DNA of 64,000 nt from Neotamlana nanhaiensis (GCF_000943555.1 NZ_JTDV01000002.1:296831-360830); one strand, 5' to 3'; positions 31,454 to 34,230 are shown, counted from the first letter of the stretch. Notes: generated by a model not told the origin, from the sequence alone. Translations and numbers: made by a program.

Positions 31454-32548
31454 ATGAAGAGAGTAAGAATTCATGCAGGAAACGTAGGTTTAGTATTTAA
31501 AAACGGTGATTACAAACGCGTAATTACAAGTGGTACACATTGGTTAGGCTTTAACGAAACCGTTGCAAAGTACAGCTTAACTACAGCTTTTAATGCGCCT
31601 AAAGCATTGGAAATCTTACTAGAAGACCAAGCTTTAGCCAACATGTTACACGTTGTAAATGTAGAAGACAACCAAATTGTTTTAGTGTACACATATAACA
31701 ACTTTAAGCAAGTGCTAACCGCTGGTCAATACACCTTTTGGAACACGTTGGTAGACTATAAATTTGTTACTGTAGATTTAAGTAAAATCGAAATCACAGA
31801 AAACATTAGCAAGTCGTTATACACCAATATGCAATTAAGACAGTACATACGCGCTTTCGAAGTAGCAGCTTACGAAAAAGCCATTATGATTGTAGACGAT
31901 AAGTTCGATAAAATCCTAGATCACGGTACATACCACTTCTGGAAAAACAATCAAACTATAAAAATCGCAAAAGCAGATTTACGTCAGTTACAATTAGAAG
32001 TGTCAGGTCAAGAGTTGTTAACCAAAGACAAAGCAGCAGTGCGTATTAACTTTTACGCACAGTACAACGTAATCGATATCGAAACAGCATTAATGCAAAA
32101 TAAAGATTACGAAAAACAATTGTACACAAGCTTGCAATTAGCCTTAAGAGCATACGTTGGCGCTTACACCTTAGACGAATTGTTAGAGCAAAAAGACCAA
32201 ATAGCAAAAGCAGTTCTAGAAGACGTAAAAGCGCAAGCCAGCAAGTTAGGCGTAAACGTATTACATGCCGGTATGCGCGATGTAATTTTACCAGGCGACA
32301 TGAAAGACATCATGAACCAAGTATTAATTGCACAGAAAAAAGCGCAAGCCAACGTAATTACAAGACGCGAAGAAACCGCATCGACACGTAGCTTGTTAAA
32401 TACCGCAAAATTAATGGAAGACAACAGCATGTTGTTCAAATTAAAAGAAATGGAATACGTAGAAAAAATAGCCGATAAAATTGGCGAAATCACCGTAGCC
32501 GGAAACGTCATCGAGCAATTAAAAGATATTTTTTCAGTAAACAAGTAA
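31454..32548 (+). CDS. SPFH/band-7 (stomatin/prohibitin/HflKC-like) domain protein, cytosolic, with an N-terminal repeat domain.
   Basis: C-terminal half LGVNVLHAGMRDVILPGDMKDIMNQVLIAQKKAQANVITRREE is typical of SPFH. No TM helix is evident. Confidence 0.7.
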   Translation: MKRVRIHAGNVGLVFKNGDYKRVITSGTHWLGFNETVAKYSLTTAFNAPKALEILLEDQALANMLHVVNVEDNQIVLVYTYNNFKQVLTAGQYTFWNTLVDYKFVTVDLSKIEITENISKSLYTNMQLRQYIRAFEVAAYEKAIMIVDDKFDKILDHGTYHFWKNNQTIKIAKADLRQLQLEVSGQELLTKDKAAVRINFYAQYNVIDIETALMQNKDYEKQLYTSLQLALRAYVGAYTLDELLEQKDQIAKAVLEDVKAQASKLGVNVLHAGMRDVILPGDMKDIMNQVLIAQKKAQANVITRREETASTRSLLNTAKLMEDNSMLFKLKEMEYVEKIADKIGEITVAGNVIEQLKDIFSVNK

Positions 32549-32597
32549 TTTTTTGGGCGTAACCACGCTTTTAGTGGCGTGGTCGCGCTTTACGTTA

Positions 32598-32632
32598 TAT
32601 CTTTTGCAAGCAAAAGGATGCCACTTCAATCG
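32598..32632. repeat. Bipartite dispersed element copy C (reverse orientation, compact).
   Basis: CGTTATATCTTTT-GCAAGC-AAAAGGATGCCACT is the reverse complement of the two halves seen in copies A and B. Confidence 0.45.
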
Positions 32633-32706
32633 CTTACGCGGGCAGTCCGTTAAGAACGAGACTAACCACAAGTGTTTTTGAAGTCAGCAATGACCAAAAT
32701 TTATAA

Positions 32707-32742
32707 TACGCAAAAACATTGCGCAATACACTATAATATTTG
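32707..32742 (+). promoter_or_regulatory. Promoter-like block P2: operator motif O3 (TACGCAAAAACATTGCGCAATA) followed by a -7-like TATAATATTTG, upstream of the RtcB-like gene.
   Basis: 22 of 22 nt identical to the motif at 30401, with similar downstream spacing to a TAnnTTTG-like box. Confidence 0.5.
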
Positions 32743-32829
32743 TAATGTCATTCAGAGCGTAAGCGAAGAATCTCATTAACGAGAAAGATAAAAGAAAAAA
32801 ACATTACCACTAACGTGGGAAATAAAACA

Positions 32830-34230
32830 ATGGAAACAAACACAAAAATAACCGGAAAAGACTTAATCAATTTAGGTTACAGACAAGGCAAATGGATGCA
32901 AGAAGCATTGGTTTACATCAACGAAAACCAATTACAAGGCGATGCTTTACAAAGTTATTTAGAGCAATACAAGTTACCAGATCCATTACCATTGCATAAA
33001 ACACCAGTAGATTTTTCAATTAACATAAAAGCAGAAAACGAGCTAGAAGAAGATAACGTTTCTAAAGTCATTAACTCGATGCAAACCTTAATGAAAACAC
33101 CAACATTAGTCAATGGTGCCATTATGCCAGATGCTTGCCCAACGGGACCAGACGGAACCATTCCTGTTGGTGGCGTTGCAGTAGCAAAAAATGCCATTCA
33201 TCCTGGTATGCATAGTGCAGATATTTGTTGTTCAGTCATGCTAACAGACTTTGGAAAAGCAGACCCAAAAGACGTGTTAGATGCAGCACATGCTAATACG
33301 CATTTTGGTCCTGGCGGACGCGATAGAAATACGCAATTTAGATTTCCGAAGGAATTATTAGAAGCTTTTGAAAACAATTATTTCTTAAAAGATCAACAAA
33401 TGATTCAAGCGGCAAGAGCACATTTAGGAACGCAAGGCGATGGTAACCATTTCTTGTTTGTTGGTACATCTAAAAAAACAGGAAACACTATGTTGGTAAC
33501 GCATCACGGATCACGTGGTCCTGGTGCTAGATTATTTACTAAAGGGATGAAAATTGCCGAACGTTTTAGAAAAATATTATCACCAGAAACGTTAAAACAA
33601 AACGCATGGATTCCTTTTGATACCGAAGAAGGAAAAGACTATTGGCAAGCCTTGCAGACCATAAGACAATGGACAAAAACCAATCATGAGGTGATTCATA
33701 ATTCGGTTGCTGAAAGCTTAGAAATAGCTATTGAAAACCGTTACTGGAACGAGCATAACTTTGTGTTTAAAGATGGTGATTTATTTTACCACGCTAAAGG
33801 CGCAACACCTTTAGATACTAAGTTTATGCCAGATATTACAGGTCCAAGGTTAATACCTTTAAACATGAGCGAACCTGTTTTAATTGTTGACGGTGTAACT
33901 ACCAAAACCAATTTAGGTTTTGCGCCGCATGGTGCTGGAAGAAACGTAAGCCGTACACAGCATAGAAAGAGCAAAACGGGAAGCATTATGCAAATTTTTA
34001 AGGAAGAAACACGCGGATTAGATGTTCGGTTTTTCTCTAAAGAAATTGATATTACCGAATTACCAAGCGCTTATAAAAACGCTCAAACCGTTAGAAACCA
34101 AATGGAGGAATACGGTTTAGGAAATGTTATTGACGAGGTTTTACCTTATGGTTGTATTATGGCAGGCGATTGGCAAAAAAATGCACCTTGGCGTGTAAAA
34201 AGAGAGAAAAGAAGAAAAAATAAATCTTAG
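32830..34230 (+). CDS. rtcB: RtcB-family RNA ligase (3'-phosphate/5'-hydroxyl RNA-splicing ligase-like), divergent.
   Basis: RtcB motifs MPD...GGVAV, ADICCSV (Asp/Cys metal site), [14 protein letters not shown], and [11 protein letters not shown] (nucleophilic His). ATG chosen at 32830. Confidence 0.75.

Follow-up and report, generated by a model that had tools for sequence, protein, structure and literature searches.

In Neotamlana nanhaiensis, a divergent RtcB-family ligase and a soluble SPFH/Band-7 protein are encoded side by side, and together they are probably the effector part of an island, regulated by a WYL-domain protein, that answers damage to the translation apparatus. The two genes lie in a stretch of 64,000 nucleotides (nt) of that genome (GCF_000943555.1, NZ_JTDV01000002.1:296831-360830), referred to here as the window, and all coordinates count within it. 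They occupy the same strand, 281 nt apart, and both open reading frames (ORFs) sit exactly where the first-pass annotation of this DNA, which had suggested an RNA damage-response unit, placed them. The translation-damage reading is preferred because of a shared operator, synteny in 80 related loci, covariation in a noncoding RNA, an intact catalytic set in RtcB, and parallels in the literature.

A shared operator links the parts of the island. Ahead of them, on the minus strand, lies the gene for a transcription regulator with helix-turn-helix (HTH), WYL, and WCX domains (Table 1). Pfam recognizes its WYL domain at 1.4e-11 and its WCX domain at 5e-13, and a PADLOC WYL model matches it at 1.2e-24; a phmmer search of this protein against the PDB sequences gave no match. 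The palindrome CGCAATTAATTTGCG stands shortly upstream of its start codon and would be the site of autoregulation. The noncoding RNA and SPFH gene, as one unit, and rtcB, as another, are each preceded by a copy of a promoter/operator repeat. The copies form a 53-nt direct repeat, 81% identical, whose core is the palindrome CGCAAAAACATTGCG. Exact matches to CGCAA-N5-TTGCG occur at three sites in the window, and all three are within the island, before the regulator, the RNA/SPFH unit, and rtcB. When the repeat was searched by eye for the Bacteroidetes -7 motif, TAnnTTTG, only an imperfect TATTTG was seen, and no transcription start is claimed.

The same operator recurs in other genomes. One genome per species was scanned with a 13-sequence subset of a 29-sequence RtcB alignment as the query, which gave at least 589 relatives; the best 80 loci, all from Bacteroidota, were kept and are cited by number (L003 and so on) where needed. 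Over roughly 1 megabase (Mb) of these loci there are 90 exact operator sites, and 54 of the 80 loci have one no more than 300 nt upstream of RtcB. The promoter/operator repeat is likewise kept upstream of RtcB and of the RNA, or of an array of transfer RNA (tRNA) genes, in related loci.

The second line of evidence is the RNA. After a gene for a TPR protein, 1,063 nt run up to the SPFH start codon with no plus-strand ORF of 60 amino acids (aa) or more. The core of the conserved RNA in this stretch is a tandem pair of circularly permuted tRNA-like domains, which end 444 nt upstream of the SPFH start, and ahead of the pair is a 5' domain in which a long-range helix encloses two hairpins. In each tRNA-like domain, GGTTCGAATCC lies in the T arm, a short loop closes the acceptor stem, and the D arm bears a GG dinucleotide. 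The first domain is shut by a stem that stands where the anticodon stem would be, and the second has a full anticodon-like arm with a loop of seven bases.

The minimum-free-energy fold of positions 30780-31050 is not significant by itself (z -1.5); the case for this structure rests on covariation. In an alignment of 11 sequences with eight named helices and 38 pairs, 98.2% of the cells are paired, and changes on both sides are found in 26 of the 38 pairs. None of 500 shuffles reaches these values, and controls with slid partners pair at 35-45%. The 5' domain has many invariant columns among 13 loci, and its RNAalifold consensus contains 33 pairs, with compensatory changes in 12. An alignment of 13 orthologous regions extends over about 700 nt, again with many invariant columns, and the noncoding stretch keeps 70-78% nucleotide identity over 600-745 nt with L003, L006, L009, L011, L013, and L016.

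A covariance model, R1, was built from the alignment of the tRNA-like RNA. It scores 159 bits in the window and 85-164 bits across the window and 13 of the 80 loci, and it also matches L082 and L083, two of the loci (L081-L083) added by a look-up from the SPFH side; the scores are 111 bits in Flagellimonas and 121 bits in Aequorivita. Its matches always lie about 450-600 nt upstream of an SPFH gene. R1 also gives weak matches over the junctions of real tandem tRNA genes, which points to an origin of the RNA from duplicated tRNA genes. Existing models recognize the region in part. For example, the Rfam tRNA model gives a partial match below threshold, and the YrlA model (RF02553) reaches 36.2 bits at 30842-30944 against a gathering score of 69. 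ARAGORN finds no tRNA in the tRNA-like region nor anywhere in positions 1644-43302 of the window. Matches to Rfam MicC and microRNA models in the locus (E up to 1) were set aside as chance or terminator matches. A hairpin just after the tRNA-like domains (31014-31029), followed by a run of six T, was considered as a terminator of the RNA and dropped; the T run is unique to the window and is not conserved in relatives, and for this reason the 3' end of the RNA is left undefined.

The ligase itself is clearly a member of its family. The hallmark RtcB motifs GDGNHF, HHGSRG, HGAGR, and ADICC, listed when the gene was first described, are all seen in the protein. Its ORF opens at a GTG (32815-34230), but the ATG at 32830 is preferred as the start because homologues are mostly 460-470 aa long, 464 and 466 being the commonest lengths. 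The protein thus has 466 aa; the ORF first annotated is real, and the 467 residues given for it include the stop codon. The Pfam RtcB profile (PF01139) scores 130.2 bits against a gathering score of 27 (E 1.6e-37), with a match that is restricted to the C-terminal two thirds of the profile, positions 137-424. All NCBIfam RtcB equivalog models remain far under their cut-offs, as with the E. coli-type PRK09588 (79 bits versus 407), and the cut-off of the PrfH-associated TIGR03073 is not reached either (55 bits versus 271.8). The partial Pfam coverage and these low scores justify the label “divergent” that the protein had been given. It is not rare, since more than 6,000 database proteins match it at E <1e-10. 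The 120 closest homologues are 78-97% identical to it and include several named Flavobacteriaceae genera, and full-length relatives reach down to about 40% identity.

The predicted structure confirms the RtcB fold. The AlphaFold model has a predicted local distance difference test (pLDDT) score of 94.5 and a predicted template modeling score (pTM) of 0.90, and Foldseek aligns it with human and P. horikoshii RtcB over 465-485 columns at E 1e-25 to 1e-26, with template modeling (TM) scores of 0.67-0.68. P. horikoshii RtcB is also the best solved relative by sequence (2e-16). Residues 1-47 form three helices. The N-terminal extension they belong to, originally put at about 90 aa, is shorter than that: about 40 residues relative to P. 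horikoshii RtcB (query residue 73 is chain residue 35) and about 60 relative to a short bacterial model (residue 83 is model position 24). The N-terminus weakly resembles the tRNA-nucleotidyltransferase domain PF13735 (E 3e-4, below threshold), which is only a hint of tRNA binding. Its start, GKDLIxLG, is found as well on a canonical second RtcB of related genomes.

Conservation within the clade was counted in the alignment of 29 diverse members, and a profile of these aligned with residues 35-478 of P. horikoshii RtcB (1uc2/4dwr). In this profile alignment, D131, C134, H207, H225, H309, and H367 of the window protein correspond to Asp95, Cys98, His203, His234, His329, and His404, and these positions, as well as those of Asn202, Asn330, Arg408, and Arg412, are kept in 28-29 of the 29 members. 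In crystal structures of the P. horikoshii enzyme, the metal M1 is held by Cys98, His234, and His329 and the metal M2 by Cys98, Asp95, and His203; His404 is the nucleophile, and Asn202 and Asn330 touch the phosphates (PMC9745838). The two-metal and histidine catalytic set is, on this alignment, complete in the window protein.

The nucleotide pocket has changed. The guanine base is read in archaeal RtcB by Glu206 and Lys480 (PMC9745838). The position of Glu206 is occupied by Phe or Tyr in 22 of the 29 clade members (Phe210 in the window protein), with Phe in all 119 of the close homologues in which the motif was found. The C-terminal ...AKG that holds Lys480 is replaced by ...IMAG, and Met stands in place of the Lys in 28 of the 29, an equivalence that depends on an ungapped extension of the profile alignment. 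The apparent loss of these two guanine contacts is the most interesting feature of the protein. Two further changes had already been pointed out. At the MPD site the supposed insertion proves to be mainly a substitution, in that the Cys of MPDAC aligns with His67 (the His of MPDxH) and is found in 25 of 29 members, three others retaining His (MPDAH), and an insertion of two residues follows it. The replacement of the Cys before HGAGR by Pro holds throughout nearly the whole clade, Cys403 being Pro in 28 of 29 members.

The SPFH protein was described as soluble, with three N-terminal G.Y.FW repeats and no transmembrane segment, and its model bears this out. Pfam Band_7 (PF01145) matches residues 137-307 with 105.4 bits against 23.6 (E 4.5e-30). 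The highest Kyte-Doolittle mean over 19 residues is 0.96, so that neither a hydrophobic segment nor a membrane anchor is found in the protein, and the genes of the locus include no NfeD partner of the kind typical of stomatin and HflK/C. The AlphaFold model has three five-stranded beta modules, at residues 2-41, 65-108, and 132-175, ahead of the SPFH core, and two extra modules fill the N-terminus where a membrane anchor would be. Residues 5-65 by themselves match the start of the Band_7 profile at 1e-6; the N-terminal repeats are therefore duplications of the beta part of the SPFH domain. The pLDDT is about 85 for residues 1-290, and the core is followed by a long helix and then by a helical tail of low confidence. 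The C-terminal helical region falls below 50 in the monomer model, which is expected of an oligomerization region and proves nothing. Homologues are named “slipin family protein” by the National Center for Biotechnology Information (NCBI), the best match being 96% identical and from Winogradskyella.

Foldseek matches the SPFH model with stomatin, HflK/C, prohibitin, erlin, and flotillin over about 240 columns, and the SPFH domain of mouse stomatin superposes with a root-mean-square deviation of 1.3-2.2 A over 107-111 columns. Chains of the major vault protein are the sole matches that extend across the repeats, the shoulder, and the helix (393-424 columns). The domain order, with repeated beta modules, an SPFH-like shoulder, and a long helix, is the same in the eukaryotic vault, and both proteins are linked to a small structured RNA. 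On the other hand, the identity is 9-11% and the TM score on the query 0.33-0.39, and there are three modules here and nine in the vault. The likeness in the model is thus architectural and no proof of a cage, and it may reflect shared SPFH ancestry alone.

Proteins with the full-length SPFH architecture occur at 33-41% identity in E. coli, Citrobacter, Burkholderia, and Subdoligranulum. In E. coli STEC639 (CP061233.1, L087 6794-8922), a three-module SPFH protein, 33% identical over 99% coverage, is followed by a gene with a nucleotidyltransferase domain. A T-arm sequence, GGGTTCGATTCCCAC, and then a closed hairpin lie about 130 nt upstream of this SPFH gene, and no RtcB is annotated beside it in the L087 record. 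A difference of two codons, in frame, sets the window protein apart from its relatives: one GN of a GNGN repeat (about 32497-32510, residues 349-352) is missing, and it is present in all 17 of the aligned homologues.

Synteny in the 80 loci is the next line of evidence. At least one partner of RtcB is found in 74 of them. The WYL regulator leads with 66 loci, where it is mostly directly divergent from RtcB, and the TPR gene follows with 31. A canonical second RtcB (Pfam 2.6e-85) with a PrfH release-factor homologue occurs in 22 loci, arrays of 3-20 tRNA genes in largely conserved order in 16, and the SPFH gene, counted within flanks of 6 kilobases (kb), in 13. In 43 loci, RtcB has either the TPR/RNA/SPFH cassette or a long tRNA array no farther than 6 kb away. 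A TPR homologue is also found upstream of the SPFH gene in L081-L083. As an example of a fuller arrangement, the order in Flagellimonas is WYL / RtcB, hypothetical gene, TPR, seven tRNAs, tRNA-like RNA, SPFH; in Aequorivita it is TPR, tRNA-Asp, tRNA-like RNA, SPFH. In the mapped cases (L008, L010, L022, and L082), the tRNA array has the TPR gene or operator on one side and the tRNA-like RNA on the other. Two cassettes are therefore stable, WYL/RtcB and TPR-(tRNAs)-RNA-SPFH; they are usually but not always linked and have a common operator. The window is a compact, reduced arrangement from which every tRNA gene has been lost, and neither prfH nor the second RtcB is found in its 64 kb.

Arrays of 13-20 tRNA genes are located at L005 1537-3439, L022 9338-10855, L008 471-1762, L072 12180-13295, L034 12035-13301, and L014 9841-11145. 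They cover most amino acids and resemble the long tRNA arrays that are induced by stress in cyanobacteria. The canonical RtcB and then PrfH lie 2-5 kb downstream of the orthologue of the window RtcB, as in L042 (9427-11512), L072 (8652-10830), and 20 more loci.

The pairing of RtcB with an SPFH protein is not a new discovery. Burroughs and Aravind predicted in 2016, as relayed in 10.1101/312249, that RtcB in certain bacteria lies beside a Band-7 protein and a “band 7-associated tRNA,” and the same source states that YrlA occasionally adjoins a Band-7 protein and that the band 7-associated tRNA was not validated. The island of the window agrees with these systems in placing RtcB beside an SPFH protein and a predicted tRNA-like RNA. 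In the account given there, the SPFH protein is the proposed scaffold and the RNA its cofactor, and no member had been experimentally validated. The island differs from these systems, as far as that account describes them, in that the RNA is a pair of permuted tRNA-like domains within a larger RNA, with YrlA topology, rather than a near-authentic tRNA; that regulation falls to a WYL protein, for which a palindromic operator is defined; and that the RtcB forms part of a separate clade in which residues have changed. An SPFH gene is also located within the rtc locus of Pseudomonas aeruginosa (PMC13086221).

The rsr-yrlBA-rtcBA operon of Salmonella, whose rtcBA genes are induced by damaged tRNAs (PMC7790460), offers another parallel. 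There, too, RtcB comes with a structured RNA whose tRNA-like domain is closed at the acceptor stem and open on the anticodon side, as well as with an RNA-associated protein that forms rings or cages. In the window, SPFH replaces Rsr, and the sigma-54 activator RtcR gives way to a WYL regulator. No TROVE/Rsr-like gene is among the ORFs of 25252-38645, all of which were assigned to families other than rtcA, rtcR, and archease; the absence of those three genes, noted from the start, holds for about 6 kb upstream and 4 kb downstream. The PrfH/RtcB2 rescue module resembles the island in lying downstream of the orthologue in related loci and in the GKDLIxLG extension of its second RtcB; it differs in being absent from the window, whose RtcB falls under the TIGR03073 cut-off.

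A regulatory parallel comes from Anabaena sp. PCC 7120. In this cyanobacterium a silent array of 23-26 tRNA genes is induced together with rtcB by translation inhibitors and helps survival under translational stress, with a sponge role proposed by the authors (PMC8421152). The repressor TrcR governs the array, rtcB, and alr0739-alr0740, and alr0740 is a slipin-family protein (PMC10272220). In that regulon rtcB, a slipin gene, and a tRNA array are placed under one operator and induced by translational stress (PMC8421152, PMC10272220), and relatives of the window carry a tRNA array in the same island. In Anabaena, however, the repressor is a ribbon-helix-helix protein and the genes are dispersed, and the window island has no tRNA genes left. 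The association of RtcB, SPFH, and tRNA-like RNA is hence of a known kind, with regulon data in a second phylum, and is mechanistically uncharacterized. The following may be undescribed, with the 2016 paper known through 10.1101/312249: the WYL operator, an RNA of permuted tandem topology that is linked to tRNA arrays, the replacement of the guanine-contact residues in RtcB, an SPFH protein with a vault-like build, and an RtcB clade that abounds in phages.

The arrays could also mean that tRNA supply comes first. The permuted RNA would then be a decoy or sponge for anticodon nucleases, SPFH and TPR would stabilize or sequester RNAs, and RtcB would be a coregulated helper. The position of the arrays of 3-20 genes between the operator and the tRNA-like RNA, in 16 of the 80 loci and in L082, speaks for this, as does the behavior of the Anabaena array. 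We nevertheless hold it to be improbable, for the window and several relatives have lost all tRNA genes and yet retain the tRNA-like RNA, SPFH, and RtcB under the same operator, and the most constant partner of the regulator is RtcB.

In the preferred reading, that of a response to translation damage, the events might run as follows. The WYL regulator would rest on its operators until nucleic-acid fragments derived from damage bind the WYL domain, and the fragment-bound regulator would then release or activate the three promoters. RtcB, nucleotidylated on His367, would reseal breaks with 2',3'-cyclic-phosphate and 5'-OH ends in tRNA or ribosomal RNA (rRNA). Such breaks would come from ribotoxins, from anticodon nucleases triggered by phage, or from toxin RNases of the cell itself. 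Like other SPFH proteins and the vault, the SPFH protein may form a soluble ring or cage, and it may bind the tRNA-like RNA; the particle could hold broken, tRNA-shaped substrates for the ligase or act as a decoy for tRNA-directed nucleases. In relatives, spare tRNAs from the arrays of 3-20 genes and the PrfH/second-RtcB ribosome-rescue pair would complete the response.

The RtcB clade is found in 112 phage records, with members in Tenacibaculum and Cellulophaga phages at 58-65% identity and in Rhizobium and Bradyrhizobium phages at about 45%. This occurrence fits a role against tRNA- or rRNA-directed nucleases. The member in Cellulophaga phage phi40:1 is at 5998-7401 of L088. The analogy between the SPFH protein and the SPFH-family scaffolds of some phage-defense systems did not find support: PADLOC-DB 2.0 gave no match for the SPFH, RtcB, TPR, or GreA-like protein of the locus, and the WYL regulator matched generic WYL models only.

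Several points weigh against a translation-damage island. The binding of the WYL protein to this operator is inferred from position and co-occurrence only, and the SPFH protein is a putative partner of the RNA. The SPFH gene directly adjoins this RtcB in only about 11 of the 80 loci, and the TPR-RNA-SPFH cassette of Aequorivita has no RtcB within 10 kb. None of these neighbors was found for the distant clade members that were looked up, which come from other lineages and are 43-52% identical. In the clade alignment, the residues of RtcB that would contact guanine are not conserved, and because they have been replaced, the chemistry of the enzyme may differ from the textbook GTP-dependent reaction. 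The idea of an RNA damage-response unit is partly supported: the shared operator, the RNA covariation, the PrfH and tRNA-array partners, and the literature favor it, and the loose link from SPFH to RtcB and the solitary distant members stand against it.

The trigger of the island could also be DNA damage, since characterized HTH-WYL-WCX regulators such as PafBC and DriD sense single-stranded DNA and the window regulator has the same domain order. Carried through, this would make it a DNA-damage island, in which the WYL protein senses single-stranded DNA, RtcB caps or seals DNA 3'-phosphate ends, and the RNA and SPFH protein are accessory. RtcB can indeed ligate and cap DNA 3'-phosphate ends, and DNA-damaging agents induce the Salmonella rtc operon (PMC7790460, PMC10630183), but there the DNA-damage signal itself works via tRNA cleavage (PMC7790460). 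Furthermore, the conserved partners are all related to translation (the tRNA-like RNA, the tRNA arrays, and PrfH with the second RtcB), and no DNA-repair gene is conserved in the island in the 80 loci or in the look-up from the SPFH side. An island devoted to DNA damage is therefore considered unlikely.

The weakest explanation is that the adjacency has no meaning, the SPFH protein being an ordinary membrane scaffold, the noncoding stretch decayed tRNA genes, and RtcB a gene on its own; direct SPFH-RtcB adjacency is seen only in a few genera, all closely related, the distant clade members have none of the partners, and the weak R1 matches at tRNA-array junctions indicate descent of the RNA from tRNA genes, but the shared operator and the RNA covariation make such a coincidence very unlikely. 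The RNA/SPFH and rtcB units have both operator and promoter repeat in common, 98% paired cells and 26 compensatory pairs would not survive in decayed genes, the RNA holds its position upstream of the SPFH gene in genera where the SPFH protein is only 56-72% identical, that protein is without a membrane segment, and in another phylum rtcB belongs to the same regulon as a slipin gene (PMC10272220).

A more speculative extension of the translation-damage reading, which we put forward with considerable doubt, is a bacterial “mini-vault” that repairs or shields tRNA. It would combine a retooled nucleotide pocket in this RtcB clade, which Bacteroidota have in common with their phages (Glu206 to Phe/Tyr, Lys480 to Met, His67 to Cys, and Cys403 to Pro), using a nucleotide other than GTP or catalyzing something other than plain sealing, with a soluble, vault-like SPFH cage around a double permuted tRNA mimic, the whole being switched by a WYL protein that senses broken RNA.

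The island bears on what RtcB repairs in bacteria and on why ring or cage proteins (Ro60, Band-7) and tRNA-like RNAs accompany it. As a test case it is compact, since it consists of a single regulator with a clear operator, a single structured RNA, and one each of soluble SPFH protein and ligase, and its natural variants add spare tRNA arrays and a ribosome-rescue pair. Carriers include culturable marine flavobacteria that have known phages with the same ligase clade. The island could reveal whether SPFH proteins serve as RNA-associated scaffolds away from membranes, which ligands WYL domains bind outside DNA-damage and defense contexts, and whether an altered nucleotide pocket changes RtcB chemistry. 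The possibly undescribed features named above make it a good entry point for experiments.

Table 1. Features of the island and of its immediate surroundings, in window coordinates
Feature	Position	Strand	Remarks
Flavo-1 RNA motif	20789-20940	+	RF01705, above gathering score
HTH-WYL-WCX transcription regulator	28273-29292	-	339 aa from ATG 29292; mechanical ORF reaches TTG 29340
Operator palindrome CGCAATTAATTTGCG	29336-29350		44-58 nt upstream of regulator ATG
25-codon ORF MRLFITYQPKPKGKWPFVTLRDYCR and the hairpin after it	29553-29697	+	In the WYL-TPR gap; strong hairpin and T run at 29648-29697
TPR protein	29842-30390	+	182 aa; TPR Pfam matches; poly-lysine C-terminal tail; first gene of the TPR-RNA-SPFH cassette
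Promoter/operator repeat, copy 1	30394-30446	+	Ahead of noncoding RNA and SPFH gene; palindrome CGCAAAAACATTGCG at 30403-30417
5' domain of noncoding RNA	30733-30857	+	Long-range helix enclosing two hairpins
Two tandem circularly permuted tRNA-like domains	30858-31010	+	Core of conserved RNA
tRNA-like domain 1	closing stem 30861-30865/30921-30925; T arm 30870-30886; closed acceptor hairpin 30887-30902; D arm 30905-30919
tRNA-like domain 2	T arm 30934-30950; closed acceptor hairpin 30951-30968; D arm 30971-30987; anticodon-like arm 30989-31005
Conserved noncoding stretch to SPFH start	31011-31453	+	Hairpins 31014-31029 and ~31407-31437 (just before start codon)
Soluble SPFH/Band-7 (“slipin”) protein	31454-32548	+	364 aa; three beta modules, SPFH core, long C-terminal helical region
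Flavo-1 RNA motif	32577-32647	-	RF01705, above gathering score; in SPFH-rtcB spacer
Promoter/operator repeat, copy 2	32700-32752	+	Ahead of rtcB; palindrome at 32709-32723
Divergent RtcB-family ligase	32830-34230	+	466 aa; N-terminal three-helix extension, basic C-terminal tail
Terminator-like hairpin and T run	34236-34271	+	Separates rtcB from the convergent GreA-like gene
GreA-like protein	34274-34732	-	152 aa; convergent with rtcB
Flavo-1 RNA motif	36591-36664	+	RF01705, above gathering score

The genes that flank the island encode a prolyl oligopeptidase, an ABC ATPase, a GreA-like protein, a transglycosylase, a flavin adenine dinucleotide (FAD) oxidoreductase, and accC/accB. The GreA-like protein has a weak match to the GreA/GreB C-terminal domain, below the curated cut-offs; a homologue follows RtcB in 6 of the 80 loci and is probably ordinary flanking context. 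The Flavo-1 motif, one of whose three copies stands in the spacer between the SPFH gene and rtcB on the opposite strand, behaves as an interspersed intergenic element. A 98-aa ORF without a Pfam match, which is not in the window, is 78-100% identical in 19 related loci (L042 8455-8751 and 18 more), a conservation that is unusually high for an uncharacterized protein. The region of the MRLFITYQPKPKGKWPFVTLRDYCR ORF and its hairpin, which lies between the regulator and the TPR gene, could be a small gene or a small RNA.

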